Positions 25,513-63,297 of a stretch of DNA of 64,000 nucleotides are shown here, in pieces. The DNA lies in NCBI GenBank assembly GCA_030590485.1, contig JAUUYL010000005.1:6084-70083 (forward strand), in the 5' to 3' direction. The notes under the pieces were generated by a model. That model worked only from the letters and a program-made list of their open reading frames with translations. It was not told where the DNA came from and ran no database searches. Position 1 is the first letter of the stretch. The number at the start of each line of letters is the position of its first letter. The position numbers were made by a program, and so were the translations under genes. Source of the stretch: Lentisphaerota bacterium (GTDB lineage: Bacteria > Verrucomicrobiota > Kiritimatiellia > UBA8416 > JAUUYL01).

Positions 25513-26406
25513 ATGGTTTTAATTGTGTCTGACTCCAAAAAATGGTTTGCAAGAATCCGAAGTTGTATAATGTTGGCCATTATTGCTCTAATATCAGCTG
25601 GGTGCGCGACAAAGACAAAGCATGAATGGTTGACTTTCTTTTTTGATGGTGTACCTCCCCTGGAAAAACAGCTGGGGAAACAGCAAGTCTTGACTGCCGA
25701 CAAAAAGGCAGGAGGCACGACATCTGAATCATATTATATTCCTCTGCATAAACCTCTTGTTCGAACGTATGAACATAATCCTTATAGCAAACGCAATTGC
25801 AAATCATGTCATGAATCAAAATTTTCTCAGAAGCTTTTAGGGAAGACAATTGATGTTTGCATGAAGTGTCATTCGAAGTTGCTTAAGGACAAGAAGAATA
25901 AACATGACCCGGTAGCCGAGGGGGAGTGCCTGGAGTGCCATGAGCCGCACAAGGCGGACAATAAGAATCTTTTGAAACGGAAAGGTGCAAAGCTGTGCTA
26001 TGAATGTCATGACGACGAGGTGACAGAGGCCAAGTTTAAGCATGATCCTGCCGCTGACGGATCATGCGCCGAGTGTCACAATCCTCACGCATCCAACAAC
26101 AAAAACCTGCTTATAAGGACTGGCAAGGCGTTGTGCTATGAATGTCATGAGGATGAGGTGACAGAGGCCAAGTTCAAGCATGATCCGGTTGATGAGGGTG
26201 AATGTTCTGAATGCCACGATCCGCACAAATCCAAGAACAAGTATCTGCTGAAGAAGGCGGGAGACGCATTGTGTTATGAGTGTCATGATCAGGATGACAT
26301 AAGTGAGAACAAGGCGCATGAGCCCTCGAAGGTGGCGGCTAAGAGCTGTATTGGGTGTCATGATCCGCACAAAAGCGAGAATAAGTATCTTCTAAAGCAG
26401 TTATGA
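25513..26406 (+). CDS. Nonahaem c-type cytochrome, probable lipoprotein, with a triplicated dihaem module
   Basis: '...IMLAIIALISAGC' precedes 9 CXXCH motifs. The module 'KHDP..(E/D)G.C.ECH.PH...NK.LL...G..LCYECH(D/E)DEVTEAKF' occurs three times and is also visible as a near-identical DNA repeat (~25996 and ~26136). Confidence 0.9.
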   Translation: MVLIVSDSKKWFARIRSCIMLAIIALISAGCATKTKHEWLTFFFDGVPPLEKQLGKQQVLTADKKAGGTTSESYYIPLHKPLVRTYEHNPYSKRNCKSCHESKFSQKLLGKTIDVCMKCHSKLLKDKKNKHDPVAEGECLECHEPHKADNKNLLKRKGAKLCYECHDDEVTEAKFKHDPAADGSCAECHNPHASNNKNLLIRTGKALCYECHEDEVTEAKFKHDPVDEGECSECHDPHKSKNKYLLKKAGDALCYECHDQDDISENKAHEPSKVAAKSCIGCHDPHKSENKYLLKQL

Positions 26407-35780: not shown

Positions 35781-37361
35781 TCAGGGCGTGTAACTCCGCG
35801 AGGCATGTTGGCAATTTCCATCTGGATAGCAGTTTCCTGCCGTATCCCAGCCTTCCAGCCAGCCACCATTGATAAAATGCTTTGTGGTCGTTCCTGCGCC
35901 ATCTTTTCCGGTGCCGGCGGGCCATTGATAATTTCCTCCATGGATATCGAGGGCTGCGCTATTCAGAGTAATAGAAGTAATGCGATCAGCGTTTTCATCC
36001 GGTTCTTCTTGTCCGGAATGGCAGCCTCTGCATGAAAAAGGCCCGTGAACATCCGGCACCTGTTTCGATCCGTAGTCTTCCTCCCAAAGAGGATCAACGT
36101 GCGCACTGTTGTCAGAATGGGGGGATGTGCCCGACTCATCGTGGCATGTCCGACAAAATACAGCAATATTAGCACCGTCGGTTGGTCCCGATATATTAAC
36201 TCTCAGCATATTGTTATTGGCCGATCCGTGGGCATTGATACCATGGCAATCAAAACACGAGATTACATTATGCTCATTAGCGCCTTGGTTCCAGGGCGCT
36301 TGCATGTTTGAGCTGTCACACTTTGCATTACTGCCAGGTCCCTTTACTGGATGGAAATAGGCATTTCCCGTCGAGAGCGCGGTGTCGATATCGGCAACTG
36401 GATTCCCTGTACTGAACGGTGTAGTGCCGCCACCGCCGGGCCGGGCTTCGCCATCGCTATCATGGCATTTGAGGCAGAAGTTGGTTTGTAGCAGAAGGAT
36501 ATCTGCTTCCAGATTCTTGTTGGCAGTATTACGTATGAAGGGCTGTGCTATACTGATAACACTATTGTCATCCGGATTACGAAGATCAGTTGTGGTGTTG
36601 CCATGGTAAGCGTTTCCAAATTCTTCATGGTGACAGACCATGCAGTCGTTCGTGGTTACGGAGCCGCCAGGGATGTGTCCCGCCACCAAACCGAAGTCTG
36701 GCATCACTGCCCGATGACCACCTTGTATTGTAGCATGGCATGCCGTACAGTCTGTTCCGCCGTTGCCAGCAAAGTTGCCATCGTGTGCGTGGCATGAGGC
36801 GCAGTCGCTTCCGGCAGCAGCGTGGGTCGTATCCGCAGCGCCGAATGCATTGTTCCGATATTGGTCTGTATTCGTATGACAGACCTGACACACTCCGTTG
36901 TAAGGTGCGGTTCCAAAGGAGTAGTCCAATGTATCGTGGAAAACGCCATTTCCTATGGCTTGCGGCATATAGTTGGTTTCAACGCGAAAGTAGAACAGAT
37001 TGGTTCCGGTGACACTAGCATGGGCGTCCCAGGTAATCATTGACGCTAGGTCTCCCCCTCCATGCACTTCGTGGCAGGTGCCGCAATCGGCCAGAACATT
37101 ACTGTTGGAATCAAGGTGAAGAGCTACATCGCATTTGTTGGATGCCACGCCGGTCGGATTGTGGCATTGGCCGCAGGTTGTTGACTGCTGTTCCGCATCC
37201 CGAGAAATTAAGAGTCCAGAGTGTCCCGCTCCGTGGCAGGTTAGGCAGTCAATACTATATTTCGCATTGTGCCCCACCAATGTTTGGCCGATGAGTGCTG
37301 TGCAAGCGGCTGTTACGCAGCAGATCAGCATATACAAAGTTATGCTTCTGGTTGGCATCAC
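35781..37361 (-). CDS. Undecahaem c-type cytochrome, secreted
   Basis: Hydrophobic N-terminus and 11 CXXCH motifs (CLTCH, CGQCH, CGTCH, CQVCH, CASCH, CTACH, CMVCH, CLKCH, CFDCH, CRTCH, CRGCH). There is a 4-nt overlap with the upstream gene. Confidence 0.9.
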   Translation of the reverse strand: MMPTRSITLYMLICCVTAACTALIGQTLVGHNAKYSIDCLTCHGAGHSGLLISRDAEQQSTTCGQCHNPTGVASNKCDVALHLDSNSNVLADCGTCHEVHGGGDLASMITWDAHASVTGTNLFYFRVETNYMPQAIGNGVFHDTLDYSFGTAPYNGVCQVCHTNTDQYRNNAFGAADTTHAAAGSDCASCHAHDGNFAGNGGTDCTACHATIQGGHRAVMPDFGLVAGHIPGGSVTTNDCMVCHHEEFGNAYHGNTTTDLRNPDDNSVISIAQPFIRNTANKNLEADILLLQTNFCLKCHDSDGEARPGGGGTTPFSTGNPVADIDTALSTGNAYFHPVKGPGSNAKCDSSNMQAPWNQGANEHNVISCFDCHGINAHGSANNNMLRVNISGPTDGANIAVFCRTCHDESGTSPHSDNSAHVDPLWEEDYGSKQVPDVHGPFSCRGCHSGQEEPDENADRITSITLNSAALDIHGGNYQWPAGTGKDGAGTTTKHFINGGWLEGWDTAGNCYPDGNCQHASRSYTP

Positions 37362-39343
37362 TGGGAATGCTCCACTTTAAGCCGATAGAATCCCTTGGTT
37401 TCAACGCTGTGCACGGTGTCGGTATAGCTGTTCCAAGGAGGGGTTCCCTGGATCCCGTTCGTAACCAACTGCATTGATTCCGATAAATTGCTGCTCCAAT
37501 ACAGGCTGTATGAGCGGTCGTACTGTCCGCGCCAGAGCAGTACGAAGTTGCCGGAAGCCGCATCTACGGCCTGGTCTTCAATTTCAAACACAGCTGCCGC
37601 ACTAAAGGGGTCGGTGCCGGCAATCCATTCGTCTGTATTGATAACCCCGTCACCATCAGTATCCAGAGCTGGGTCAAGGTCGGTGACTTCCGTGAAGTTG
37701 GCTTCCCACCAGTCGGAAATTCCGTCGCCATCAAGGTCGGCTTCTCCGATAGAGTTCGTGGGGTATATGTCTATGCCAAATACATTGGTCGAGGAAAGGC
37801 CTCCGGAATCGGTTACACTGACACGGACGCTCTGGGAGGTAGTCACGCTGTAATCGAACGTCGTCTGCACCATCAGGTTTGCGCCGTCGATGGAAAAGTT
37901 AGTGTTACCAGAGTTTCCGTCTCCCGCGACGAGCGAATAGGTCTGTGTGTCGCCCAGATCCTCGTCAAGCGCGGTGAAAGTTCCCGCAAGTGTATTTGTG
38001 GGTTGTCCCTCAAGAACATAGGCAGAGCTGAGTTCAAGGTAAGTCGGAGCTTCGTTGATGTCTGTAACCGTTAACCTCAGGTTTTGTGCCAGCATGAGAT
38101 TGCTTGAGTTTGCGCCTGTCACGGCAATCCGAATCGACATATTGGTAATCTGCTCAAAGTCCAGTGATTGCGCGGTGATAAGATTAGTTCCGTTAATTTC
38201 GAAGAAGGCGTTATCATCGGGCCAGGTTGGTGCCGCCAGCATGTAGGTAACAGGGCCGACCGGGGCAAGGGAAAGGCTTAAGGTTCCAACCGTTGTGCCC
38301 ACAGGAATATTTTCGGCCACGGGGGAAGCATTAAGTTGAACATCGCCTAACGTGGCTTGTTGGCGGATCACCTCGACACGACCATCCGCGCTACTGCCAA
38401 CGATGACGCTGTTGCTGCCGTTAGATGGGTCGGTAATAAGAATATCGAGCCCAAGGTTAATCGTTCCGGGGGTTGTTCCGTGACCACCATAATTAATACC
38501 TTTGTACGTGCCTGTGTCGGCATCCCATACCTGAATCTTCCCTAAAAAAACATCAAGAGCATGAATTTGGTAATTATTATCAACCGCAACGCTCTGGAGG
38601 GTTCCGACTTTTCCGACGTCAATCGCAGACCCGATGAGTGGAGGGGTTAGAACTCTCAATAGGTTTCTGTTTAAATCAAAAACCTGAAAACGATCGTTGC
38701 CCTGGTCAGCCACAAACAATTCGCCTACAGCCTGCCCTGCCGCATTCGTGCGATATGCAACATCAACGGAAATAGGGAATCTGAATTCACCATCTGCAGT
38801 GCCGAACGATCCAATGTCACCCAGATGCACCCCGTCCATGCTGAAGGTTCGAATGCAGTGTGAAGCGCTGTCGGCTATATACAGGTTACCATAAAAATCA
38901 AGCGCGATGTCACTTGGCACACTTAGCAGGCCTGTGCCGATATTTCGCTGGAAGTCCCCGTTCTCGTCATAAACCTGCACGGCACTGACGCCGCGGTTAC
39001 CAACAAACATGGTCCCGTCAAAGCCTACTGCAATACCGAGCGGGAAGTTTTGGTACTTAAGTTCGCCGATAGGAGAGAGGGATGCATCATAAATGAAGAC
39101 CGAACCAACCACGGGGTCCGTCACGTAAATTTTTCCTGCGGGCCCACGCGCTAAACGAGAAGGGGATTTAATGCTGTGGATAACACTAAGATCTGCAGCT
39201 TTCGCCGTGAAGGATAGAATTAGAACAAGACCCAGGAGCAGATAGAGGCAAGCGCCCCTGCATATATCTCGATAACATGAATATGATAGACTCATCCTGA
39301 TGTCCATTTCGATCACTAAACTGCTGGTTACAAAAACGCCCAT
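37358..39343 (-). CDS. Secreted NHL-repeat, cadherin-like and thrombospondin-type-3-repeat surface protein
   Basis: NHL repeats include 'FRFPISVDVAY...ELFVADQGNDRFQVFD'. The cadherin-type junction is 'LTVTDINEAPT'. Ca-binding TSP3-like repeats are 'DLDGDGISDWWE' and 'DTDGDGVINTDEW'. The start may be an internal Met (about 39295). Confidence 0.75.
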   Translation of the reverse strand: MGVFVTSSLVIEMDIRMSLSYSCYRDICRGACLYLLLGLVLILSFTAKAADLSVIHSIKSPSRLARGPAGKIYVTDPVVGSVFIYDASLSPIGELKYQNFPLGIAVGFDGTMFVGNRGVSAVQVYDENGDFQRNIGTGLLSVPSDIALDFYGNLYIADSASHCIRTFSMDGVHLGDIGSFGTADGEFRFPISVDVAYRTNAAGQAVGELFVADQGNDRFQVFDLNRNLLRVLTPPLIGSAIDVGKVGTLQSVAVDNNYQIHALDVFLGKIQVWDADTGTYKGINYGGHGTTPGTINLGLDILITDPSNGSNSVIVGSSADGRVEVIRQQATLGDVQLNASPVAENIPVGTTVGTLSLSLAPVGPVTYMLAAPTWPDDNAFFEINGTNLITAQSLDFEQITNMSIRIAVTGANSSNLMLAQNLRLTVTDINEAPTYLELSSAYVLEGQPTNTLAGTFTALDEDLGDTQTYSLVAGDGNSGNTNFSIDGANLMVQTTFDYSVTTSQSVRVSVTDSGGLSSTNVFGIDIYPTNSIGEADLDGDGISDWWEANFTEVTDLDPALDTDGDGVINTDEWIAGTDPFSAAAVFEIEDQAVDAASGNFVLLWRGQYDRSYSLYWSSNLSESMQLVTNGIQGTPPWNSYTDTVHSVETKGFYRLKVEHSQ

Positions 39344-39420: not shown

Positions 39421-39453
39421 ATAAAAGTGCAAGAAAAGGGTTTGAAAGCCCTT
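39421..39453 (-). terminator. Weak candidate intrinsic terminator after hemA
   Basis: On the minus strand, AAGGG-CTTTCAAA-CCCTT is followed by TTCTTGCACTTTTAT. The stem is only 5 bp. Confidence 0.3.
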
Positions 39454-40735
39454 ATTTTCTATGGCTTTTGAGGTTGAAGAGCTTTCTGACGGATTGAGCG
39501 AATTGCTCCCATTGTCCGTTTTTATGTGATTCTGCAAGCTGTTTTCTTGCTGGACCCATTAGTCGGTTTGAAAGACGGTGAACAAGATCTTTTAGCTCAT
39601 CGTGATGATGGGCTTCGAGCTTTGAGAAGGCTTCTTTGCTGAGAGTTTTCTCTAGTTCCTCTTCCTTGATGTTGTCGATGTATTCTGTCAGATCTTTCAT
39701 CAGGATCGGAAATGAATTGTCCGCAAATAAATCGGCAAGGGCGATTGCTTCCGTTTTTACTATCTCGGTGGCTGCGTCAACGGCCAGATGTCTGTGCGCC
39801 AGATTCTCATTGGTAATTTTCTGCAGGTCGTCGATGTCATAAAGATAGACGTTGTCCATGTTTGCGATTTCCGGTTCGATGTCTCTTGGAACAGCGATAT
39901 CGATCAGGAGAATGGGGCGGTTGTGACGTTTTTCTATGGCGGCTTTTACTGCACCCGTCTTGATCATGCAGTGCGGGGCACTTGTGCTGCTTATGACTAT
40001 GTCTGTCAGCGCAAGGTTTTCCTCAAGAAGGTCAAAGGTAATGGATTTTCCTCCGTACTCTTTGGCAAGCAGCGCGCCTTTATGCGCGGATCTGTTTGCC
40101 ACGATAACATTTTTCACACCGTGATCGATAAGGCTTTTTAGCGTCAGTTCACCCGTTTCTCCTGCGCCCACTATCATGGCGGTTTTTTCAGAGAGATTGT
40201 CGAAGACTTTTTGTGCAAAGTCGACTGCGATAGAGCTGACGGAAACGCGGCCGTGGCAGATGGTGGTTTCGGTGTGTACGCGCTTTGCGGTGCGGATTGA
40301 TTCCTGAAGGAGTTGATGCACGTATTTGCAGTCGGGCTGTGTTTCTACGGCTATGGAATATGCCTGCTTGACCTGCCCCAGAATCTCCGTCTCACCCACT
40401 ACCATGGAGTCCAGACTGGAGCAGACCCGCATCAGGTGTTCAATGGCGTCGGGTCCGGATTTCATGTAAAAATGAGTCATGTCGGCATCGGTCAGGCTGG
40501 TCTTGGCGCAATCGGCAAGCAGTTGAGCCATTTCCGCTTTATCCAGTGTGACGTCCTGCCCCGCAAGATAAAGTTCTGTTCGGTTGCAGGTCGACAGCAG
40601 AAATACATCGAGTTTACTGGTCTGTTCTTTGATAGCCTGGATGGCAGGCGAAATGCGCGCTTGAGTAAAGGAGAACTTCTCTCTTAGCTCCAGAGATGAT
40701 GTTTTGAAGTTTATGCCCAGTACTTTAATCTGCAT
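39452..40735 (-). CDS. hemA: Glutamyl-tRNA reductase
   Basis: 'MQIKVLGINFKTSSLELREKFSF', 'LSTCNRTELY' (active-site Cys) and NADPH site 'VGAGETGELT'. Confidence 0.95.
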   Translation of the reverse strand: MQIKVLGINFKTSSLELREKFSFTQARISPAIQAIKEQTSKLDVFLLSTCNRTELYLAGQDVTLDKAEMAQLLADCAKTSLTDADMTHFYMKSGPDAIEHLMRVCSSLDSMVVGETEILGQVKQAYSIAVETQPDCKYVHQLLQESIRTAKRVHTETTICHGRVSVSSIAVDFAQKVFDNLSEKTAMIVGAGETGELTLKSLIDHGVKNVIVANRSAHKGALLAKEYGGKSITFDLLEENLALTDIVISSTSAPHCMIKTGAVKAAIEKRHNRPILLIDIAVPRDIEPEIANMDNVYLYDIDDLQKITNENLAHRHLAVDAATEIVKTEAIALADLFADNSFPILMKDLTEYIDNIKEEELEKTLSKEAFSKLEAHHHDELKDLVHRLSNRLMGPARKQLAESHKNGQWEQFAQSVRKLFNLKSHRK

Positions 40736-51952: not shown

Positions 51953-53782
51953 ATGGCAACATTTGAGTTGTATGGGAAAGCTGAAGAGGGTGCATCCCGC
52001 GGCAATCAGCCGGGCGGGTTTGGTAACGATGTATTAGTCAATAACGCCAGATGGTTTGTTTCTTTACGTTGGGTAGTTGCGTTTGTTCTTGCGGTGGCTG
52101 GAGTCGGGGGAAAGTATTTCCCCTCGATTTATGGCTGTGATGCCACAAACTTTATTCTCTGCTGGCCATGCCGCCTTGCGGCCGTTCTGATGCTGGCGAA
52201 CATATATTTTTCTATACGCGTCAAGAAGCTTACCGTTCAGTCATCCAGAAGTGAAGTATTCACAAGTTTATGGACTCAAATAGCGTTTGATCTGGTGGTG
52301 TTGACTGCGGTGGTTCATTACGTTGGAAGTATAGAGACATTTATATCTTTCACTTATCTCTTTCATATTGTATTGGCATGCATATTTTTCTCCAGGGGAA
52401 GCAGTCTGGCGGTGACTTTGTTGGCGGCAGCGCTTTATACGGTTTGCGTGGCGCTTGAGGCGAATGGAATATGGACAAAAAGCTGTGTCGTGGAATCGCT
52501 TATTACCATTAGACCGGAAAATGCAATATACGCTGTTATCTACCCGGCTTCCGCGATAGCGATCTGGCTTGTGGTGTGGTATCTGGTGTCTACGCTAGCT
52601 AGCACGGTGCACGAGCGGAACGTACAGATAACACTTGTGAATGAACAGTTGAACAAGGCGCATATAGAGAAAAACCAGCAGATGTTAAAAACCACCCATG
52701 ATCTGAAGGCTCCGTTTTCGGGAATGGAAAATAATATCCAGATGCTGCGAATGCTACACTGGGACAGTCTTTCTGATGAGGTGAAAGATCTGATTGAGCG
52801 TATAGAGACGAGGGCGAAGATTTTGCGTGAGCGCATCAAGGAGATATTGTTATTGGGCGACTTGAGGAGTGTTTCGGAGAATGCCAAACGGGTAGAGTGG
52901 GAGGATATTGACCTAAGGGGGCTTTTCGATAAGGTGTTGGAAGAAGTGCAGGGTAAAGCGACTGCGCGAAAGATAGAGATAGATATGGACATTCCGGCTG
53001 TAGACGTGAGAAGCAATAAAAAGAAACTGGTCACTTTGTTTAGTAATTTGTTGTCCAATGCTGTGTTTTACTCGCCGGAAGGGGCGCATGTTCAGGTGGT
53101 TGCAGAGCGACGAGATGCTGAGCTGGTGGTTAGTATTGTGGATAAGGGGATAGGCATTAGCAAAGAAGCTTTACCCCGTATTTTTGAGGAATTCTACATT
53201 TCTAAGGAAGGATCCCAATTTAATAAGTTGTCAAGCGGTCTCGGTTTGGCTATCGTTCATGAGATAGTTGATATGTTGGAGCTTCAGATACGGGTGGAAA
53301 GTGAGCTGGGCAAGGGGTCTCGATTTGAGGTTATTATGCCTGATGCAAAAGATGCGGACGGCAGGAATATAAAGCAAAAGGAGGAGAGCAAAATGGCGAA
53401 GGTACAAATCATTGATGACGAAGTTGATCTTGCCGGTAATCTAAAGATTCTGTTAGAGAAAGAAGGGCATACAGCTTTCACTTTCAATGAGGTAGAAGGT
53501 GCTGTTGATGAAATCATCAAGAATGCACCGGATGTTCTTGTGTTGGACGTGATGTTTCCTGGTAATCCGGCTGGTGGTTTTGATATAGCTCGGGCAGCCA
53601 GAACTCGCGATGAGCTCAAGAGTCTTCCTATCATCATGCTCACGGGTGTGAATCAGGAAATGCCGGTTGATTTCTCAAGTCAGGACATTGACTCAGATTG
53701 GTTGCCGGTTCAGGATTTCTTAGAGAAGCCTGTGGATATGCCGAAACTGATAGAGACGATAAACGGTTTATTGAAGAGCTAA
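51953..53782 (+). CDS. Hybrid sensor histidine kinase (membrane sensor, HisKA, HATPase_c and receiver)
   Basis: About 6 N-terminal helices. H-box 'THDLKAPFSG', N-box 'LLSNAVFYSP', G-boxes 'DKGIGIS' and 'GLGLAIV'. C-terminal receiver 'VQIIDDEVD...VLVLDVMFPG...LPIIMLTG'. Confidence 0.9.
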   Translation: MATFELYGKAEEGASRGNQPGGFGNDVLVNNARWFVSLRWVVAFVLAVAGVGGKYFPSIYGCDATNFILCWPCRLAAVLMLANIYFSIRVKKLTVQSSRSEVFTSLWTQIAFDLVVLTAVVHYVGSIETFISFTYLFHIVLACIFFSRGSSLAVTLLAAALYTVCVALEANGIWTKSCVVESLITIRPENAIYAVIYPASAIAIWLVVWYLVSTLASTVHERNVQITLVNEQLNKAHIEKNQQMLKTTHDLKAPFSGMENNIQMLRMLHWDSLSDEVKDLIERIETRAKILRERIKEILLLGDLRSVSENAKRVEWEDIDLRGLFDKVLEEVQGKATARKIEIDMDIPAVDVRSNKKKLVTLFSNLLSNAVFYSPEGAHVQVVAERRDAELVVSIVDKGIGISKEALPRIFEEFYISKEGSQFNKLSSGLGLAIVHEIVDMLELQIRVESELGKGSRFEVIMPDAKDADGRNIKQKEESKMAKVQIIDDEVDLAGNLKILLEKEGHTAFTFNEVEGAVDEIIKNAPDVLVLDVMFPGNPAGGFDIARAARTRDELKSLPIIMLTGVNQEMPVDFSSQDIDSDWLPVQDFLEKPVDMPKLIETINGLLKS

Positions 53783-55036
53783 GAGCGTTTTCTCAACGAA
53801 TATATTGATGTCTTCTTCCGTATGGGCTGCAGAGACGAATGCGGCCTCGAATTGCGACGGCGGAAGGTAGATTCCAGACTTCAGCATAGAGTGAAAGAAT
53901 TTCGCATGCTGTTTGGTGTCACAGCATTTAGCGTCTTCAAGATTCTTTATTTCTTCCTTGCGGAAGAATGGTGTAAACACTCCGCCTAATTGTGCTATGT
54001 GCATATCGATGTTTTTCTCTGCGCAGTGTGAGTTTACGCTGTCGGCCAGCTTCTTGCCCAATCGCGCCATCTCGGGGTAGGGGTTCTCATCACGCAGTAT
54101 TTTCAGAGTTGTCATTCCCGCTGCGACTGCCACAGGATTTCCGCTGAGAGTTCCTGCCTGATAAACTGCGCCTAATGGAGCGAGCGATTCCATGATGTCT
54201 TTTCTGCCGCCGAGCGCGCCGATTGGCATTCCGCCGCCAATGATCTTGCCCAGAGTGGTTAGGTCTGGGGTTACATCACACATGTTTCCATAGGTTGTAG
54301 GTCCGAGTCTGAATCCATTTATCACCTCGTCAAAAATCAACAGAGCGCCGCAATCGTCGGAAATCTGTCTGAGTTCCTCAAGGAACCCTGGCTTGGAAGG
54401 TACCAAGCCCATATTCCCGGCTACAGGTTCCATGATAATCGCCGCGAGATCATTTGCGTTTTCTGAAACAATCTGCCTGACGGCATCAATATCGTTATAA
54501 GGTGCTACGAAAATATCTGCAGTCATGCTGTCAGGAACACCGGCGGATGATGATATGCCGGCTGTGAGCAGTCCACTGCCGGCAGAGACAAGGAGGCAGT
54601 CGGTATGGCCATGGTAGCCACCTTCAAACTTTAGTATCTTGTTGCGTCCTGTATATCCTCGTGCGAGACGTAAGGCAGTCATCACGGCTTCCGTGCCTGA
54701 GCTCACCAGCCTTACCATGTCGATGTAGGGAACCAGCTCACAGATGAGTTCGGCGAATTCCACTTCGCGTGGCGTATTGGTGCCAAAACTTGTGCCGTCA
54801 GAAGCGGCCTGCTTGATTGCTTCTACAACTTCTGGTCGAGCGTGGCCAAGCGGCAGGGGGCCCCATGATCCGCAGAAATCGATGAGCTCGACTCCATCGG
54901 CGGTCTGCATTCTGGAGCCATTGCCTTTGACGATGTATACTGGGTCGCCGCCTACTGAATTGAAAGCTCTTACCGGGCTGTTAACACCACCAGGAATTAC
55001 TTTGCATGCTCTTGCGAAAAGTTCTTTGGAATTCAT
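53768..55036 (-). CDS. hemL: Glutamate-1-semialdehyde 2,1-aminomutase
   Basis: From ATG 55036: 'MNSKELFARACKVIPGGVNSPVRAF' is the canonical HemL N-terminus. The PLP Lys context is 'TLGKIIGGG'. Confidence 0.95.
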   Translation of the reverse strand: MNSKELFARACKVIPGGVNSPVRAFNSVGGDPVYIVKGNGSRMQTADGVELIDFCGSWGPLPLGHARPEVVEAIKQAASDGTSFGTNTPREVEFAELICELVPYIDMVRLVSSGTEAVMTALRLARGYTGRNKILKFEGGYHGHTDCLLVSAGSGLLTAGISSSAGVPDSMTADIFVAPYNDIDAVRQIVSENANDLAAIIMEPVAGNMGLVPSKPGFLEELRQISDDCGALLIFDEVINGFRLGPTTYGNMCDVTPDLTTLGKIIGGGMPIGALGGRKDIMESLAPLGAVYQAGTLSGNPVAVAAGMTTLKILRDENPYPEMARLGKKLADSVNSHCAEKNIDMHIAQLGGVFTPFFRKEEIKNLEDAKCCDTKQHAKFFHSMLKSGIYLPPSQFEAAFVSAAHTEEDINIFVEKTLLALQ

Positions 55037-55089
55037 ATGTAGTTCGTTCAAAGTCGTGAAATCGTTAAAGCCGGCTTTCTCCCTATTCA

Positions 55090-56079
55090 TCACTTATCAG
55101 TCATCATTTCCTCATATTGATTGGCCCAATATGAGATCACAAGGTCTGTACCTGCTCTAACCATGGCAGTAGTAGACTCCCTGACCATTTCTTTGAGATC
55201 ACCCCAGCCCCTGTCTGCAGATGCTATCAATGCGGAGTACTCACCACTGACATTGTACGCTGCAATCGGCAGGTCAGTGCAATCTCGGAGCTGAGAAATT
55301 ATATCAAGATAAAGCAGGGCTGGCTTGACCATGAGTATGTCAGCGCCTTCCTCTTCATCCATGAGTGACTCCCTGATTGCCTGTTTGGGATCTCCGTATG
55401 ACTGTTGGTATGCCTTGCGGTCACCAGACTGGGGTGCTGATTTCTCTGCCTCTCTGAACGGACCGTACATCGATGATGCAAATTTGGTTGAATAACTCAT
55501 TATCAGTGTATCCTGATAACCAGATGAATCGAGCTCGGCACGGATAGCGCCGACCTGTCCATCCATCATGGCGCTGGGCGCTACGATGTCGGCGCCGGAT
55601 TTAGCATGGGAAAGAGCGATTTGAGCCAGAGAGTGGTTTGTTACATCGTTATTGACCGTGCCATCCGGGTCCAAAATGCCGCAATGACCATGATCAGTAT
55701 ACGCGCACATGCATACGTCTGTCAGGATTACAAGGTGGGGATATGCTGAGCGAACGGTCTGGACTGCCTCTTGAACTACCCCGTTCTCGGCATAAGCTGA
55801 AGAGCCTTTTATGTCTTTTGATGTGTCGTCAATGACTCCAAATATCAATACACTGCCGATGCCCGAGTCGACAACAGGTTTGAGATCTTCGACAAGGCAG
55901 TCTGCCGTAAGTCGGGATTGGCCGGGCATGGCGTCAATGGGTTCTCGCCTATTCACGCCTTCAATGACAAAAACAGGCCATATAAACTTCTCTGGACCGG
56001 GCATAGTCATATCGAACATCCGCCGGAGGCCCTCTGACTTGCGCAGTCTGCGTAATCTTGTATGTGGATAACTACTCAT
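55090..56079 (-). CDS. hemB: Porphobilinogen synthase (ALA dehydratase), Zn-type
   Basis: 'RLRRLRKSEGLRRMF', Cys-rich metal site 'DVCMCAYTDHGHCG', and Schiff-base Lys contexts 'MVKPAL' and 'STKFASS'. Confidence 0.95.
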   Translation of the reverse strand: MSSYPHTRLRRLRKSEGLRRMFDMTMPGPEKFIWPVFVIEGVNRREPIDAMPGQSRLTADCLVEDLKPVVDSGIGSVLIFGVIDDTSKDIKGSSAYAENGVVQEAVQTVRSAYPHLVILTDVCMCAYTDHGHCGILDPDGTVNNDVTNHSLAQIALSHAKSGADIVAPSAMMDGQVGAIRAELDSSGYQDTLIMSYSTKFASSMYGPFREAEKSAPQSGDRKAYQQSYGDPKQAIRESLMDEEEGADILMVKPALLYLDIISQLRDCTDLPIAAYNVSGEYSALIASADRGWGDLKEMVRESTTAMVRAGTDLVISYWANQYEEMMTDK

Positions 56080-56160: not shown

Positions 56161-58287
56161 TTATGTGAGGCTAATATTAACGTAATAAGCTGCCAATGTG
56201 CTGATAGCGGACTTGACGGTTGCTTCATCCCCTATGATATCTGACTCGAGATTCATTTTTCCCAGTTCTTTTGCGGTCGGAATGCCTATGGAAAGGATGG
56301 TCTTGCTCGAAAGTGCCTCGGCACCCCACAGTTCAGAGAAGGCCAGGACTGCTGATGCGCTGGCAAAGAATACAGAATCGAAATCAGGTAAGGAGTCATA
56401 TCTTACGGGTTTATTTTCGTACAGAACGCAATCGGTAATATCGGCGCCCAACTTGCCCAATTCTTCTGCCAATGAAGTACCTGCCTTATCAGCACGGAGT
56501 CTCAATATGCGATCGCCTTTGTTGATGCAAGGTTTGATGGTGTTTACGACGGAAGTAGCGTTGAATCCCGAATCGGGCATTGCATCAGGAGTTATGCCTC
56601 TTTTTTTGAACTCATCAGCCGTTCCTGTTCCGCATACGAGTACCTTGGGGACTGAGCGAAGGTCTATATTGTTGGCTGAAGCTATATCAAAGAAACATCG
56701 TGCGGCAGACGGGGAGGTGACAACCATCCAGTCATAGGTCTCGATGTTTGCAATATCATCGATTGCGGCATTTAGAGGGACAAGATCAATAAGGGGGCGT
56801 TGAACGGGTATACCACCCAGATCGGAAGTAATGCGTGAGGCCTTTTCCTGTAGAGCTTCGCTGCATGTCAGAAGAATCTTGTTGCCTTTGAGTGCGCCGT
56901 AGGATGTGTAGGAATATGCAGTGGTTTCACCAACCAGCAGTAACCCCGGGAGAGATGCAAGTGATGAGTGATGAGTGATGAGTGATGAATGGAGCTCGGA
57001 CAACGGTGATTTGATTATTTGTTCATCGTCTGTTCCAGCGGCAAATACGATTGCAGCCGGTGTGTCCGGTGCAACACCATCGTCTGTCAGTTGTTTGGTT
57101 ACTTCTGGTATGGCTTTGGCCGCCATAAAGAAAGCGATGGGCAGCTTAGCGCGTTCGTTACCGTTGACGGGGTCTATTCCTCCGCCCTGCTTGCGAGGAG
57201 TCATTACGCAAAACCCTTTTGAAAGTCCGCGTCTCGTCATCAGCATGCCCGTTGTTGTAGTCGCCAATTGAACGCTGCTGATTCCTGGTATTACCTTATA
57301 AGAGAGCTGAAGCTTGTCGAGTGTCTCTACTTCTTCCGCAAGGCGCCCGAAAATGCCGGGATCGCCGCCTTTGAGCCTTACGACTTTACTGCCGCGCCTG
57401 GCATGTTCTGCAATGAGAGCGTTTATTGCGTTCTGATCAAGATGATGATCACCGCAGCGTTTGCCTGCATCAATTCGCAGTGCGTTAGCGGGCACGTAAT
57501 CAATAAGACCTTGAGGCATGAGTGCATCATGAATACAAACATCGCAGTTTTCGATAGCATTAATACCTGCGAGCGTGCACATGTCTGACGAGCCTATGCC
57601 GGCACCTACAAAATCTACGGACTTTGTAAAGAGGCTTCGGAGGTGTAGCATGGTCTTGTTTTCCGATTTGAAAGTAACAGCAAGATATCCTTGGCCGTCA
57701 GGAGGAGGCAGTTCGTCTTCGGACACCAGTTCGGAGATGCGGTCTTGTAAGTCTAGCCGATTAAGAGCCGCTGCCGCCATGACAAGCATATCGTAATCAC
57801 CATTATCCAATTGTTCCAGGCGACTTTCTATGTTGCCCCGTATATTTTTCAGTATGGCATTTGGAAAGCGGGTGACGCACCATGTTTCGCGACGCTCACT
57901 GCTGATGCCGACTATAGGCTCGGCTTGCAGATCGGCACTTGTTTTTCCCGCCGGCAGGATTATCGCGTCACGAGGATCTTCCTGCCATGGCAGCCAGAAC
58001 CAGTCTATATCATCCGGCATGGGGGATGGCAGATCCTTGGCGCTGTGAACAGCGCAATCTATATCCCCGTTCAATAGGGCGTCGTCGAGGTCTTTGGTGA
58101 AGAAATCCCGGGCGCTTTCACGCAGATCGGTAGATCGATCACGGTCTCCCGGTGACGAGAGTTCAATTATGTCGAATTTTATTGCCGGAAGCATGCCCTC
58201 TATCCGGTCAAGTGCGCCTCGAGCCTGAATGACGGCGAGTCTGCTGGATCGTGTTCCGGTTTTTATGGTTATGGGTCCGTTTGTCAT
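56161..58287 (-). CDS. Triple fusion: HemC-like (domains 1-2 only), uroporphyrinogen-III C-methyltransferase (CobA/SUMT) and uroporphyrinogen-III synthase (HemD)
   Basis: Start ATG 58287 (ATGA overlap with the sirC stop). Residues 1-223 align with E. coli HemC through 'GQG..' ('GTRSSRLAVIQA', 'AVHSAKDLP', 'EDPRDA', 'SSERR', 'RGNIESRLEQLDNGDYD'). The next residues are the SUMT start 'VDFVGAGIGSSDMCTLAG...LKGGDPGIFGR'. The C-terminal ~235 aa are HemD-like. Confidence 0.8.
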   Translation of the reverse strand: MTNGPITIKTGTRSSRLAVIQARGALDRIEGMLPAIKFDIIELSSPGDRDRSTDLRESARDFFTKDLDDALLNGDIDCAVHSAKDLPSPMPDDIDWFWLPWQEDPRDAIILPAGKTSADLQAEPIVGISSERRETWCVTRFPNAILKNIRGNIESRLEQLDNGDYDMLVMAAAALNRLDLQDRISELVSEDELPPPDGQGYLAVTFKSENKTMLHLRSLFTKSVDFVGAGIGSSDMCTLAGINAIENCDVCIHDALMPQGLIDYVPANALRIDAGKRCGDHHLDQNAINALIAEHARRGSKVVRLKGGDPGIFGRLAEEVETLDKLQLSYKVIPGISSVQLATTTTGMLMTRRGLSKGFCVMTPRKQGGGIDPVNGNERAKLPIAFFMAAKAIPEVTKQLTDDGVAPDTPAAIVFAAGTDDEQIIKSPLSELHSSLITHHSSLASLPGLLLVGETTAYSYTSYGALKGNKILLTCSEALQEKASRITSDLGGIPVQRPLIDLVPLNAAIDDIANIETYDWMVVTSPSAARCFFDIASANNIDLRSVPKVLVCGTGTADEFKKRGITPDAMPDSGFNATSVVNTIKPCINKGDRILRLRADKAGTSLAEELGKLGADITDCVLYENKPVRYDSLPDFDSVFFASASAVLAFSELWGAEALSSKTILSIGIPTAKELGKMNLESDIIGDEATVKSAISTLAAYYVNISLT
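56961..56988. repeat. Tandem heptanucleotide array (GTGATGA)x4 inside the coding sequence
   Basis: Read directly. On the coding (minus) strand it is (TCATCAC)x4, encoding 'HSSLITHHSS' at the SUMT-HemD junction. Confidence 0.95.
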
Positions 58288-58799
58288 TCTGAGGTGGTAT
58301 CGTCGGCGGTTATTTCTTCCATATTCTTCAGGAACTCCAGGATGGCATTTTTGATGTCCCGAGCTTCGATGCAGGAGCGTCCGCCGGTGGAAACTGATAT
58401 GGTAATACCGTTGTGCCTGAAGGATGCTGGCGAAACAAAATCGCCATTTCGCCAGTTTCCGTCGATGCAGCAACAAAGAACGCGGTTGTCTCGACATGCG
58501 TTGAGAACGGCATTGTTGACTTCCTCGTTATCGGTTGCTGCGAAGACGAGGCTTTGTTCTTTTATGTCACGCTTATCGAATTTTCGGGCGATATACTTTA
58601 TCTGATTGTTTGACACGAGTTCCTTGAGCCCTTCGCATATTTCGGGGGCGATGACGGTTACATTGGCCAATGCCGAAGTAAGGGTTCGGGCTTTTCTGTT
58701 GGCGACATTGCCTCCGCCGACAATCAGGCATGATTTTGCCTCTACGAGAAGGCTGGCTGGCAATATTGTTTTGGCATCTTTTGGCATTTTGCTTGGCAT
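58284..58799 (-). CDS. sirC: Precorrin-2 dehydrogenase / sirohydrochlorin ferrochelatase (SirC/Met8/CysG-N type)
   Basis: NAD site 'CLIVGGGNVANRKARTL'. About 170 aa. It lies between ahbAB and the SUMT fusion. Confidence 0.8.
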   Translation of the reverse strand: MPSKMPKDAKTILPASLLVEAKSCLIVGGGNVANRKARTLTSALANVTVIAPEICEGLKELVSNNQIKYIARKFDKRDIKEQSLVFAATDNEEVNNAVLNACRDNRVLCCCIDGNWRNGDFVSPASFRHNGITISVSTGGRSCIEARDIKNAILEFLKNMEEITADDTTSE

Positions 58800-58802: not shown

Positions 58803-59831
58803 CTACTGAAAATATTTCATACTCGTTTTTTTGTATTCCTTTACCGAGCAAAGCATTTTGCCGTCTGAAAGACCAGCATTATTGCCTATTTTCAGGAAAA
58901 GCTGATGTGTTTCGTCCCAGTTTCGAGTGTGTATCATAGCGAAGAGATTGTAAGGAAAGATCGGATCAATAACACGTTGGTAGCAGTGAGTAACTTCCGG
59001 GTTGGAGGCGAGTGCGCGGCCAGCTTCCAACGCCTGGTCTTCGGGTACTGACCAGGTGCACATGGCATTGGCTTTGAAGCCGATTTTGTGATGACGCAGG
59101 ATAACTGCGGTTCGCCTCAGAATGCCGTCCTTCTTCCACGACTTCAGCGTGTTGAGCATGTCCTCTACCTCAAGACCGAGCTGTTTGGCGATGTCTGCAA
59201 AAGGAGTCGGTGTTATGGGGATGTTGCCGTCCATGAGCCGAACGAGTTGTTTCTCCTCCTCCGAGAAGTTTCGAAACGTGTTATTATCCTCTTCCGTAGT
59301 AATCGGTGGAGCGCCGGGGAAACGTTCGCCCTTTTTCAGGTCTGTTGGGTTGAAGATGACATCTATCTTGAATCGGCGTATAGCCGGTAGGATGAGCAGG
59401 TTGGCAGATGCTGTGGCTTCGCGAAGTTTATTGATTTGTGCGTCAAAGTCTTCTGCCGGTGTGGCGAGGGTAAACCAGAGTTCCGGATATGATTCTGCGT
59501 GGGCTGGGAGTGATGTGTCGAGTTCCTCGGGCCAGCCTCTGAGGTAGCAGTGGGTCGTTCCGGAATTTGGGGTTACGAGCGCGGCCAATTCATCCCTGTT
59601 TTCGGGAGTCGTGGTCAGGGCGCATAAAGCACTTTTATATCCCAGTCGTCGTGCATCGAAGATGCCGCCTATACGGCGTGCTTTACCCTCGTCGAACAAT
59701 TGTTTTATCTGCGAAAGAACTTCATCTTCTGAGGATCCGAGTTCTTGTGCAATCGCATTAAAAGGATTTTTTTCAAGGGGCAGTCCTTTTTGAATGGCCA
59801 GCAGTAGTTTACTATTTTGTTCTTGGTTCAT
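58803..59831 (-). CDS. ahbAB: Siroheme decarboxylase, fused AhbA-AhbB (NirD/L/G/H-like duplicated Lrp/AsnC-type fold)
   Basis: From ATG 59831. Two homologous halves are present: 'LLLAIQKGLPLEKNPFNAIAQELG...GTTHCYLR' and 'LVRLMDGNIPITPTPFADIAKQLG...VTHCYQR...PYNLFAMIH'. The C-terminus is '...KKTSMKYFQ'. Confidence 0.85.
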   Translation of the reverse strand: MNQEQNSKLLLAIQKGLPLEKNPFNAIAQELGSSEDEVLSQIKQLFDEGKARRIGGIFDARRLGYKSALCALTTTPENRDELAALVTPNSGTTHCYLRGWPEELDTSLPAHAESYPELWFTLATPAEDFDAQINKLREATASANLLILPAIRRFKIDVIFNPTDLKKGERFPGAPPITTEEDNNTFRNFSEEEKQLVRLMDGNIPITPTPFADIAKQLGLEVEDMLNTLKSWKKDGILRRTAVILRHHKIGFKANAMCTWSVPEDQALEAGRALASNPEVTHCYQRVIDPIFPYNLFAMIHTRNWDETHQLFLKIGNNAGLSDGKMLCSVKEYKKTSMKYFQ

Positions 59832-60993
59832 AATCGCAAGATGGCTCCTCATCCATGTAGTTTCCTGTATGTGCGAGCGCCCTTGCGCGGCATCCGCCGC
59901 ACAGGCGTTTGTATTCGCATCTGCCACATTTTCCCAGGTAGTCTTCAACTCTCCTGAGGTCATTAAATATCTTTGATTCTCTGTACACCTTCATGAAATC
60001 GTAATTGTTGGCTCTTAGGTCGCCTGATGGCATATCAAAAAAACCGCATGGCTGAAGTATGCCGCGATGCGAGATAAAGACAAAGCCACGCCCGCCCATG
60101 CATCCTCCTGATGGGTGACCGCCTTTTTCTGACGACTGCTTTTGGATTCTGGCGTAATGAGGAGCGCATGTTGTCTTGACTCGGATGGGGGAGTTGAGTG
60201 ATGTTTCGTGAATCCAGTGAAGTGCTTTTTCATGCTGTTCGGGAGATATTTCCAGGTCTGTGAGTTCAGAGCCCCTGCCGGTTGGAACAAGGAAAAATGC
60301 GTCAAAGGTCTTTGCGCCGAGATCACACGCCATCTTGTAGATTGCCGGCAGGTCATCTATGTTAAGTTTTGTGACGGTTGTGTTTATCTGAAATGGGATG
60401 CCGGCATCAATAGCATGCTGAAGTCCCGCCATCGTCTTCTTGAATGCTCCAGGTGTGCCGCGGAATTCATCATGTTTTTCTTCCGAGGCTGCATCGATGC
60501 TGATACTGATCGCTTTTATACCAGCAACCTTCATCTGTTGAGCCGTTTCAGGTGTGATAAGGTGACCGCACGGTGCCATTACCGGCTGGAGGCCTTTGTC
60601 CGTCGCATAGCGTGCGATATCAAAAATATCCGGTTGCATCATGGGTTCTCCGCCCGTGAGAATAAGAATGGTTGATGGTTGCTTGCCGCCCGCCTTGACT
60701 TCAGCGGCGGCGGGATGGTTGATGGTTGGAGAGGATTTAGGTAGGTCTGTGGAGATGTTATCAATGACCTTGAAGCATTCTTCGGTCGTAAACTCTTCGG
60801 AATAGTTCTCGTCACGCGCTGAACCTCGACAGTGCCTGCATTTTAGATTACAACGCCGGGTCAATTCCCACGCAATCACGCGTGGGAATGGTTGCCTGTC
60901 CGCCTTCCTGTTCGCCGTAGCCTTGGCGAAGGCGGAAGCTTTAGCGGCGGCGGGATGGTTGATGGTTGATGGTTGATGGGGGGGATGGCTCAT
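59812..60993 (-). CDS. ahbD: Radical SAM/SPASM enzyme of the NirJ family, AhbD-like (haem b synthase); carries in-frame repeat-element insertions
   Basis: 'RVIAWELTRRCNLKCRHCRG' (CX3CX2C) and a C-terminal SPASM Cys cluster 'GKCGRCEYKRLCGGCRARA'. The AhbD versus AhbC assignment rests on the remembered '..AWE.T..CN..C.HCR' pattern and could be swapped with the neighbour. Confidence 0.65.
   Translation of the reverse strand: MSHPPHQPSTINHPAAAKASAFAKATANRKADRQPFPRVIAWELTRRCNLKCRHCRGSARDENYSEEFTTEECFKVIDNISTDLPKSSPTINHPAAAEVKAGGKQPSTILILTGGEPMMQPDIFDIARYATDKGLQPVMAPCGHLITPETAQQMKVAGIKAISISIDAASEEKHDEFRGTPGAFKKTMAGLQHAIDAGIPFQINTTVTKLNIDDLPAIYKMACDLGAKTFDAFFLVPTGRGSELTDLEISPEQHEKALHWIHETSLNSPIRVKTTCAPHYARIQKQSSEKGGHPSGGCMGGRGFVFISHRGILQPCGFFDMPSGDLRANNYDFMKVYRESKIFNDLRRVEDYLGKCGRCEYKRLCGGCRARALAHTGNYMDEEPSCDYEPRTK
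60666..60729. repeat. Composite element, internal copy: (ATGGTTG)x2, GC-rich imperfect palindrome, (GATGGTT)x2, in frame within ahbD
   Basis: GAATGGTTGATGGTTG-CTTGCCGCCCGCCTTGACTTCAGCGGCGGCGG-GATGGTTGATGGTTGG. A 26-nt identity (60703-60728) matches 60943-60968. It encodes 'SSPTINHPAAAEVKAGGKQPS', which is absent from the paralogue at the same position. Confidence 0.85.
60887..60978. repeat. Composite element, 5' copy: ATGGTTG unit, palindromic core, (GATGGTT)x3, at the 5' end of ahbD
   Basis: TCCGCCTTC...GAAGGCGGA (9-bp arms, 60899-60907 and 60928-60936) with nested TTCGCC/GGCGAA. Then AGCGGCGGCGG and (GATGGTT)x3 at 60954-60974. It either encodes the N-terminal extension 'HQPSTINHPAAAKASAFAKATANRKADRQ' or lies in the ahbC-ahbD spacer if the true start is internal. 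Confidence 0.8.
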
Positions 60994-61011: not shown

Positions 61012-62199
61012 TTACTCCAATAATCCAATCTCTTCATCTGTGAGGTAGCAGGCTGGGTCGAAGCCCCATGGGTCGCCGGTAGACGCTTCGCCTCGGGCGC
61101 GGAAGTTACCGCCGCACACGTTGAGAAACTTGCATTTACTGCAGCGTTCGCAGACGTGCGGCATTTTGTTCTTCAGACTCGCTGTCAGCGGATTTGACAT
61201 GTCAGTCCAGATCTCGCTAAAGGGCCTTTCACGCACATTACCTAGAATATGCTGACGCCAGAATTGGTCCGGATGAACTGCGCCGTCCCAGCTGATACAT
61301 CCGATACCATTACCCGTGCTGTTGCCACCGTTCATTTCGAGTAGCTCCATGACCTGTGCCGCGCGCGGGTTACCCTCCTTAAGCATTCGCATATAAAGGT
61401 AGGGTCCATCGCAGTGGTTGTCGACGGTGAGGACTTCCTTCTCCAAGCCTCTGGTTTTCATGTCGGCTGTTCGGTCGATGATATAATCGACCATCTCGCG
61501 GGTTTGTTCGTGGGTAAGGTCGTCTTTGGCAATGTCTGCACCGCGCCCGGTATAGACCAGATGGTAAAAGCATACTCGAGGAACGTCTTCAGCTTCCAAG
61601 AGATCGAATATACCGCCGATATCTTTGGCGTTGTGTTTGGTTATGGTATATCTGAGACCCACCTTGATGCCTGCTTTTTTGCAGGCACGAATGCCGGCCA
61701 GTGCGCCTTGGAATGCACCTTTCACGCCGCGAAATTTATCGTTCGTTGCTTCGAGTCCATCCAGACTTATGCCGACGTATGAAAGGCCGACTTCTTTCAG
61801 TTGTGCAGCCTTTTCTTCGGTTATCAATGTGCCGTTAGTTGAAATGACCGCGCGCATACCTTGGGCCACGGCATAGTTCGCCAGTTCCGGAAGATCTTTC
61901 CTGACCAGTGGTTCGCCGCCTGAGAAGAGAAGGACAGGAGACCCGAAAGAGGCCAGATCATCAATAACGACTCTTGCTTCTTCGGTCGACATCTCATTCT
62001 CGGCTTTGCCCGCGTTAGCCTGGGCATAGCAATGAATACATTTCAGGTTGCATGCGCGTGTGATGTTCCATACAACAACAGGTTTTTTATCCTCTGAAAA
62101 CTGTAAAAGATGGCTGGGCAGCTCGCTGGATTTGCGTCCATAACGAAGTGCGTCTGATGGCTCGACTGTGCCGAGATAAAGTTTTGAAATTCCTATCAT
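61012..62199 (-). CDS. ahbC: Radical SAM/SPASM enzyme of the NirJ family, AhbC-like (Fe-coproporphyrin III synthase)
   Basis: 'VVVWNITRACNLKCIHCYA' (CX3CX2C) and SPASM cluster 'CERCSKCKFLNVCGG'. It is the first gene of the haem operon. The assignment versus AhbD is tentative. Confidence 0.65.
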   Translation of the reverse strand: MIGISKLYLGTVEPSDALRYGRKSSELPSHLLQFSEDKKPVVVWNITRACNLKCIHCYAQANAGKAENEMSTEEARVVIDDLASFGSPVLLFSGGEPLVRKDLPELANYAVAQGMRAVISTNGTLITEEKAAQLKEVGLSYVGISLDGLEATNDKFRGVKGAFQGALAGIRACKKAGIKVGLRYTITKHNAKDIGGIFDLLEAEDVPRVCFYHLVYTGRGADIAKDDLTHEQTREMVDYIIDRTADMKTRGLEKEVLTVDNHCDGPYLYMRMLKEGNPRAAQVMELLEMNGGNSTGNGIGCISWDGAVHPDQFWRQHILGNVRERPFSEIWTDMSNPLTASLKNKMPHVCERCSKCKFLNVCGGNFRARGEASTGDPWGFDPACYLTDEEIGLLE

Positions 62200-62310: not shown

Positions 62311-63297
62311 TCAGAAGTGATGCTTGTTCAGGTGTTCTTTGATTATCTGCAGTTGCCCTGCCAGATCGGACAGTTCTCTTTGCCAGAAAGCATTTGAGCC
62401 CCATTCGGGATGGTCTGCTTGAAACTTGAAGTCGTCAATCTGCTGACTGCACCATGCGAGAAAGTAAATCAGTCGCATCGCGCGTAATGGTTCGATCAGG
62501 CGAAGGCTGGTGTAGTCGAACTCACGGAACATTTCGTATCCGCGCAGGAGCAGATCCAGTTCACGTTTGCACTCATCGGCATGACCGGGCAGGAGAAGCC
62601 ATAGGTCTTGCACGGGAGGACCTATCATCATGTCGTCGAAATCTATCATCATTATGCCTTCGCCCGGTCGGTTTAGCAGGTTTCCGCAGTGACAATCGCC
62701 ATGGATGCGTATGAACTCGGTATGGTCGAACATGTTGCTTATAAGATCCAGTATTTCTGATGTTACGTCCTCAAACTCACCGCGACATTGCGGCGTGACG
62801 AAGTTGTGATCTATCAGGTGTCGGATATGTTCTTTGGTTGATTCCTGCGGATGGAGATCCGTTCTCTCTGTTGCTTCTTTCTTGCTGCCCACGACGTGAA
62901 CCCTTCCCAGCAGGCGTCCGACACTGAGCCAATCCTTTGGTGAATTCAGTTCCAGCTGGCGTCCGTAACGTTTCTGGAAGATAGTAAAATATATGCCATC
63001 CGCATCTTGCAATGTTTCGCCGTTAGGCATGACCATAGGGGCGATTACGGGGATCTCGTCTGCGGCACAGTCGGCGACGAAATCGTGTTCTTCCTGTAGA
63101 GCTTCGTAGGACCAGCGTCCCGGACGGTAGAACTTGGCGATCAGTCGTTCGTCGTCCATCGTCTGCACTTCATATACGCGGTTAATATAGCTTGGCAGAG
63201 GGGTGGCCAGGCCGGTCATTCTTTGGCCTAATGCCTGCTCGACAGCGTCCAGTATTGTGTCCGGCACTAAATGTTCAAAATCTGCTGCTTCGTTCAA
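62311..63297 (-). CDS. srkA: Stress-response Ser/Thr kinase SrkA/RdoA (YihE) family, APH-like fold
   Basis: 'PLPSYINRVYEVQTMDDERLIAKFYRPGRWS', 'IHGDCHCGNLL' and 'MIDFDD' match the YihE/RdoA pattern. Confidence 0.8.
   Translation of the reverse strand: MNEAADFEHLVPDTILDAVEQALGQRMTGLATPLPSYINRVYEVQTMDDERLIAKFYRPGRWSYEALQEEHDFVADCAADEIPVIAPMVMPNGETLQDADGIYFTIFQKRYGRQLELNSPKDWLSVGRLLGRVHVVGSKKEATERTDLHPQESTKEHIRHLIDHNFVTPQCRGEFEDVTSEILDLISNMFDHTEFIRIHGDCHCGNLLNRPGEGIMMIDFDDMMIGPPVQDLWLLLPGHADECKRELDLLLRGYEMFREFDYTSLRLIEPLRAMRLIYFLAWCSQQIDDFKFQADHPEWGSNAFWQRELSDLAGQLQIIKEHLNKHHF

Follow-up and report, generated by a model that had tools for sequence, protein, structure and literature searches.

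Haems, chlorophylls, and corrins all derive from a first tetrapyrrole made by hydroxymethylbilane synthase (HMBS, HemC), and in all solved HMBS structures the dipyrromethane is attached to a conserved cysteine of domain 3, an arrangement that reviews up to 2026 present as universal (PMC7242693, PMC13564367, PMC7959689). Here we describe a gene, in a 64,000-nucleotide stretch of a Kiritimatiellia genome (contig JAUUYL010000005.1, positions 6,084 to 70,083; hereafter the window), in which a HemC module lacking both domain 3 and the cofactor cysteine is fused to uroporphyrinogen-III C-methyltransferase (SUMT, CobA) and uroporphyrinogen-III synthase (UROS, HemD). Bifunctional CobA/HemD (SUMT-UROS) fusions are known from sulfate reducers and clostridia; Leptospira-type HemC-HemD proteins and SirC-HemC-SUMT-HemD proteins of the P0216 type likewise fuse consecutive steps of tetrapyrrole synthesis, but both of the latter keep domain 3 (PF03900), which the fusion in the window does not. 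With a confidence only slightly above even, we lean towards reading the HemC part of this fusion as a working hydroxymethylbilane synthase that dispenses with domain 3 and the cofactor cysteine, holds its growing chain non-covalently, and feeds the siroheme-dependent (Ahb) pathway of haem synthesis.

Encoded on the minus strand at 56161-58287, the fusion is 708 amino acids (aa) long. Its open frame extends over 56161-58497, but all homologues share the start at the ATG of 58287, whose overlap with the TGA stop of the preceding SirC-like gene reads ATGA, and we therefore discarded the 778-aa open reading frame (ORF) beginning at 58497; a plus-strand reading of 56161-58287 was also discarded, as there is no ORF on that strand. 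Pfam finds Porphobil_deam (PF01379) at residues 8-213 (E 4e-53, 205 of 207 profile positions), TP_methylase (PF00590) at 226-432 (E 1e-39), and HEM4 (PF02602) at 487-695 (E 6e-38), and no match to Porphobil_deamC (PF03900) anywhere in the 708 residues. Residues 8-210 align with residues 6-209 of E. coli HemC (1PDA; E 2e-31). The 971-aa protein P0216, a SirC-HemC-SUMT-HemD relative which keeps PF03900 at 382-447, shows what the fusion would look like undeleted: by BLASTP, fusion residues 8-219 correspond to P0216 160-370 and residue 224 onward to P0216 454 onward, so that the fusion is without exactly P0216 residues 371-453 (83 aa, domain 3). The original prediction, made from the DNA alone, had read this gene as a HemC-SUMT-HemD triple fusion in which residues 1-223 represent HemC domains 1 and 2 and a domain 3 of some 90 aa is absent; the Pfam, 1PDA, and P0216 alignments bear it out on each of these points, and the motifs it singled out (TRSS, SAKD, SSERR, RGNIESR, and GQG, followed by VDFVGAGIGSSD) are every one present. 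The parts of the gene are as follows.

57619..58287, minus strand: HemC module, domains 1 and 2 only, residues 1-223 (PF01379, 1PDA alignment, AlphaFold2 superposition)
57616..57633, minus strand: junction, residues 219-224, site of the missing domain 3 (~83 aa) (BLASTP against P0216)
56902..57618, minus strand: SUMT module, residues 224-462 (PF00590, NirE 2YBQ)
56164..56892, minus strand: HemD module, residues 466-708 (PF02602, 4ES6 superposition)

Domains 1 and 2 share the fold of canonical three-domain HMBS (1PDA, B. megaterium 4MLQ, and human 3ECR/7CCX) at 30-33% identity, and the catalytic Asp together with all the Arg, Lys, Ser, and Gln residues that bind the pyrroles is likewise found in the fusion (in E. 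coli numbering R11, S13, Q19, S81, K83, D84, R131, R132, R149, R155, R176, and Q198), whereas the fusion has neither domain 3 nor its cofactor cysteine (E. coli C242, human C261). The pyrrole-binding set and the catalytic Asp vary little or not at all among 120 homologues and across all of the architecture groups described below; the invariant alignment columns are H81, S82, K84, D85, S129, S130, R132, R133, R150, R156, R177, Q199, and G200, in which D85, K84, R132/R133, R150, R156, R177, and Q199 are the equivalents of E. coli D84, K83, R131/132, R149, R155, R176, and Q198. A comparison of 93 domain-3-less modules with 38 canonical ones yields, in addition, a signature of five residues (P46, D50, D61, F62, and A83), all present in the fusion, common to 80-92 of the 93, and rare among the 38. 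D50 occurs in 90/93 versus 10/38; D61 occurs in 89/93, at a position where 32 of the 38 canonical modules have Gly; and A83, immediately before the catalytic Lys-Asp, occurs in 92/93, where canonical enzymes have Leu or Met. The lid loop of the domain-3-less groups is 2-3 residues shorter and without the GGKG stretch, reading PGDRD...DFFT in the fusion versus GD...GGKGLFV in canonical HMBS. The HemC module of the fusion stops, as is typical of its clade, past the final strand and helix of domain 1. Judged by these alignments, all domain-3-less groups are set apart from canonical HemC by a remodelled lid loop and one neighbour of the active site.

The SUMT module matches NirE (2YBQ) at E 3e-37 and about 35% identity, and conserves the catalytic Asp (D254, equivalent to CysG D248), the GGDPxxFGRxxEE and TxR motifs, R315, E318, and R352/R353. 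The CobA-HemD fusions of those Kiritimatiellia that have a canonical hemC show the same SUMT-HemD order and domain content, with about 30% identity to the window's fusion, which adds the domain-3-less HemC in front; their operons also follow the same logic (hemC, cobA-hemD, hemB, hemL). Unlike these double fusions, the subclade of the window's fusion has an altered SUMT glycine loop (GAGIGS in the fusion instead of GAGPGD); since 18 of 60 cluster representatives keep the P and D of GAGPGD, the altered loop was discarded as a necessary correlate of domain-3 loss. By predicted fold and active-site residues, then, the protein is an HMBS fused to CobA-HemD that fails two features by which HMBS is usually defined, domain 3 and the cofactor cysteine, and it is a real and conserved variant of the textbook enzyme that probably functions.

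An AlphaFold2 model of the fusion, built with a 120-sequence alignment and superposed on known structures by VIA-align, has a mean predicted local distance difference test (pLDDT) of 91.6 and a predicted template modelling score (pTM) of 0.89; such high scores for the three modules suggest a defined arrangement. The HemC part superposes on HMBS structures with Z 22-23 (1PDA, 4HTG) and a root-mean-square deviation of 1.8 A over 209-221 residues. The SUMT and HemD modules match CysG/NirE and HemD structures at Z 17-19, the HemD match to P. aeruginosa 4ES6 having a VIA Z of 17.3 over 233 residues (model 468-702). The aligned ranges of the HemC superpositions extend into SUMT model residues 249-330, opposite domain-3 residues 270-324, which suggests that the N-lobe of SUMT occupies part of the domain-3 volume.

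The fusion comes from a metagenome-assembled genome (MAG) of 2.63 Mb in 134 contigs, 90.8% complete, in which PF01379 matches the fusion gene alone and PF03900 has no match at E<=10. A custom domain-3 hidden Markov model (HMM), made from the 38 canonical sequences and run unfiltered over all 31,243 six-frame ORFs of at least 40 aa, gave a best E of 2; the same HMM recovers six canonical Kiritimatiellia HemCs, used as positive control, at E 1e-14 to 1e-30. The fusion is thus the only HemC of this 91%-complete genome. The proposal that a canonical hemC exists elsewhere, leaving this domain some other role, accordingly finds no support, and of the second hemC and the free-standing domain-3 ORF for which the original prediction suggested a search, neither was found in the genome. 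Nor was a conserved small gene of unknown function, as a potential trans partner, seen beside the fusion in three operons.

PF01379 occurs in 76 of 121 Kiritimatiellia genomes (the other 45 have no HemC), but PF03900 rises above cut-off in only 6, all of which encode ordinary HemCs of 305-375 aa; in the 4 of these six that were inspected in full, there is also a CobA-HemD fusion of 514-525 aa, with the canonical HemC either immediately upstream of it or elsewhere in the genome. In the remaining ~70 genomes, the module sits in open frames mostly of 620-950 aa, with a few shorter or fragmentary. Four domain-3-less carriers (G100, G267, G015, and G087) are closed or near-closed genomes; searches of closed fusion-carrying genomes with PF03900 gave only a sub-threshold match of 19 bits in G100 and none in G267 or G242. 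The rest of the phylum has mostly canonical HemC, the long domain-3-less form appearing in G168, G178, G223, G225, G236, and the closed G242. One genome of another class of the phylum (G252) carries both forms: its canonical HemC, domain 3 included, is 306 aa long and its domain-3-less fusion 721 aa, the two being located at C69:359-1222 and C74:3901-4512. More than 120 homologues of 700-725 aa and 50-72% identity have the same three Pfam domains and are without PF03900; their database names suggest Kiritimatiellia and Pontiella, isolates included. Cultured carriers of the fusion exist, P0099, P0029, and P0034 bearing the labels of Pontiella desulfatans and of Pontiellaceae strains.

A full HMMER scan of the 223-aa module against 1.8 billion representatives places the domain-3-less form in four architectures, whose names and taxa outside the triple fusions are known to us as database labels only: i) HemC12-SUMT-HemD, where HemC12 denotes domains 1 and 2, in about 60 clusters; ii) HemC12-HemD, as in P0128 and in P0148, which lies on a contig of 71 kb; iii) SirC-GluTR-HemC12 (GluTR, glutamyl-tRNA reductase), in 19 clusters including P0195, P0199, and P0204, which ends just after the HemC module, so that nothing in cis can replace domain 3; and iv) a stand-alone module, the 226-aa P0238, labelled Chlamydiales. 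The nearest neighbours of the module in the ESM Atlas are clusters of 213 aa and 223 aa which match PF01379 only and are labelled Omnitrophota and Chlamydiota. These other two-domain HemCs (stand-alone forms of ~213-226 aa, HemC12-HemD, and SirC-GluTR-HemC12) share with the window's fusion both the module and P46, D50, D61, F62, and A83, but differ in their fusion partners; to our knowledge none has been characterised. In an unrooted FastTree phylogeny of 136 modules drawn from the 150 best hits, all rows bearing domain 3 fall on one side of a branch with support of 95-99 and the domain-3-less rows make up the rest; a tree of this kind, unrooted and confined to those hits, is compatible with a single loss of domain 3.

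The fusion is embedded in a haem operon, transcribed in the order APH kinase, two radical-SAM genes, AhbA/B, SirC, fusion, HemB, and HemL; HemA lies apart. The neighbours concerned are as follows.

61012-62199, minus strand: second radical-SAM gene, AhbC/AhbD-like (PF04055 and SPASM)
59812-60993, minus strand: radical-SAM gene, AhbC/AhbD-like (PF04055)
58803..59963, minus strand: fused AhbA/AhbB-like siroheme decarboxylase (two copies each of PF22451 and PF17805)
58284..58799, minus strand: SirC-like precorrin-2 dehydrogenase, its stop overlapping the fusion start (PF13241, E 6e-27)
55090..56079, minus strand: HemB (5-aminolevulinate (ALA) dehydratase), directly downstream of the fusion (PF00490, E 3e-127)
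53768..55093, minus strand: HemL (glutamate-1-semialdehyde aminomutase) (PF00202, E 5e-69)
39452..40735, minus strand: HemA (glutamyl-tRNA reductase), apart from the operon (PF05201, E 6e-45, at 40265-40720)

HemA, HemL, HemB, SirC, and AhbABCD are all encoded within the window, and as judged from these gene assignments the Ahb pathway around the fusion is complete. Six ORFs of the window, predicted multihaem cytochrome genes each with 4-11 CXXCH motifs (19387-20925, 20979-21590, 23685-24287, 25432-26403, 29467-31218, and 35784-37376), indicate by their sequences a heavy demand for haem c, and in relatives the fusion adjoins GluTR, Ahb genes, and the ResB/CcsA genes of cytochrome c biogenesis. 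Haem thus appears to be both made and needed, given the complete pathway, the CXXCH ORFs, and the ResB/CcsA linkage in relatives. There is one other TP_methylase match in the genome, a 263-aa ORF that is putatively an RsmI-type rRNA methyltransferase, which would leave the fusion as the sole SUMT.

The architecture, its conservation, the sole copy, and the pathway context are established; the activity and mechanism of the HemC module are inferred. One polypeptide would carry out three consecutive steps, from porphobilinogen (PBG) to hydroxymethylbilane (HemC), to uroporphyrinogen III (HemD), and to precorrin-2 (SUMT), and the precorrin-2 would feed the Ahb pathway encoded around it. The HemC module would be a working member of a large clade of hydroxymethylbilane synthases that occur naturally with two domains, and in which domains 1 and 2 hold the growing pyrrole chain non-covalently through their fully conserved Arg, Lys, and Ser sites; the chain would start not from a Cys-linked dipyrromethane but from a pyrrole or dipyrrole bound non-covalently, the most likely start given that the tight pyrrole sites are all kept and no anchor residue is conserved; and the bilane may be handed directly to the fused HemD. 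The lid loop (P46, D50, D61, F62) and A83 beside the catalytic Lys-Asp would then be the clade's own adaptations, and in the fusion the volume of domain 3 is probably taken up by the N-lobe of SUMT. Taken as a whole, the idea of a widespread HMBS that polymerises PBG without a covalent primer, with the lid and the domain 1-2 sites both starting and holding the chain, the SUMT N-lobe walling the cavity in place of domain 3, and direct passage to HemD and SUMT, seems to us about evenly balanced between right and wrong. A substrate-primed chain is at least chemically conceivable, since aminomethylbilane can serve the deaminase-cosynthetase. In the ES2 state of canonical HMBS, moreover, it is the domain-2 arginines that hold the substrate-derived rings tightly, while the cofactor is mobile (PMC7959689). 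Among the three options offered by the original prediction (a cofactor anchored elsewhere, a canonical hemC with some other role for this domain, or no covalent primer), the absence of a classical covalent primer appears to fit best.

Several considerations weigh against a non-covalent chain. In the enzymes studied to date the apo form has no activity, and the covalent cofactor is regarded as indispensable (PMC7242693, PMC13564367); chain length has been proposed to be limited by contact between the cofactor loop and a domain-3 helix (PMC7959689), and a two-domain enzyme would have to set the limit of four pyrroles without it; the SUMT lobe was placed by alignment ranges; the genome is a 91%-complete MAG; and a lineage-specific anchor is conceivable, C251 being nearly invariant in the close subfamily. 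This last point leads to a rival reading in which the primer remains covalent and is anchored in cis on another residue, with candidates in C251 and C237 (SUMT N-lobe), C552 (HemD), C137 (HemC), or the non-thiol Asp61 and Asp50 of the lid loop. In its favour are the near invariance of C251 (119/120) and C552 (116/120) in the close subfamily, the distribution of D61 and D50 given above, and a model in which the SUMT N-lobe seems to sit where domain 3 would be. But no cysteine anywhere in the fusion is universally conserved across 60 cluster representatives (C251 49/60, C552 33/60, C248 33/60, C137 31/60, C237 18/60), some HemC modules have no cysteines at all, the clade includes sister proteins without SUMT (HemC12-HemD) or without both SUMT and HemD (SirC-GluTR-HemC12 and the stand-alone form), and an acyloxymethyl ester to Asp would, on our own chemical reasoning, be labile. 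These findings give no support to a conserved thioether anchor in cis, a relocated conserved cysteine was discarded as the general solution, and we regard a covalent anchor in cis as unlikely.

The anchor could instead be supplied in trans, by a divergent separate protein carrying domain 3 or an analogue of the cofactor cysteine. With the genome at 91% completeness, profile searches liable to miss short divergent proteins, and domain 3 involved in canonical chain-length control (PMC7959689), such a partner has some room; set against this are the PF03900 and custom-HMM searches of the genome described above (no match at E<=10 and a best E of 2, respectively, with controls at 1e-14 to 1e-30), the lack of a significant PF03900 match in closed fusion genomes, and the three operons without a conserved small unknown neighbour, and we consider a trans partner most unlikely. 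With no conserved cysteine among the 60 representatives, no free domain 3, and architectures that do without SUMT or HemD, the first option of the original prediction, by which the cofactor has its anchor at another site of the polypeptide or on another subunit, is weakened in both its forms. It is also very unlikely, in our estimation, that the HemC module is no deaminase at all but a vestigial scaffold, or else a domain for PBG binding or for channelling, hydroxymethylbilane or tetrapyrroles being obtained otherwise. The module does lack an element thought to be essential, and the 45 of 121 genomes of the class without HemC indicate that the pathway is lacking or unassembled in some; yet its catalytic and pyrrole-binding residues are invariant in more than 120 sequences at ~50% identity, its gene is translationally coupled and sits in an operon that covers the whole route from ALA to haem, demand for haem is high, and the genome has no alternative HemC.

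A full-text literature search, of incomplete coverage, found no published description of a two-domain HemC. We wish to emphasise that the domain-3-less HemCs are evidently a large, conserved, and essential group, and that the bacterium of the window probably builds its tetrapyrrole chain by an undescribed variant of the textbook reaction; either a covalent primer would be dispensable, or the chain would be primed, and its length fixed at four, in a second way. Genome annotation is affected as well: pipelines name the fusions 'uroporphyrinogen-III C-methyltransferase' or 'siroheme synthase', hiding the HemC function.

Some smaller features of these loci may be recorded here. The gene that heads the haem operon (62311-63297, same strand) encodes an aminoglycoside-phosphotransferase-like (APH-family) kinase. 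The longest ORFs of the AhbA/B-like gene (58803-59963) and the adjacent radical-SAM gene (59812-60993) overlap by ~150 nucleotides, and one of the two probably starts further downstream than its longest ORF. In a Pontiella desulfatans record (L016, 8551-10047), the triple fusion is preceded by a gene that likewise encodes a fusion protein, SirC-GluTR, of 498 aa (NAD_binding_7, GlutR_N, and Shikimate_DH), and that overlaps the start of the triple fusion. Finally, the fusion gene of the window contains a short tandem array near the boundary of its SUMT and HemD modules.

56960..56988, minus strand: perfect array of 4.1 copies of the 7-nucleotide unit AGTGATG (Tandem Repeats Finder, 100% matches, score 58)

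On the coding strand, the array encodes part of HSSLITHHSS, and adding or removing units would shift the reading frame ahead of HemD unless their number were divisible by three.

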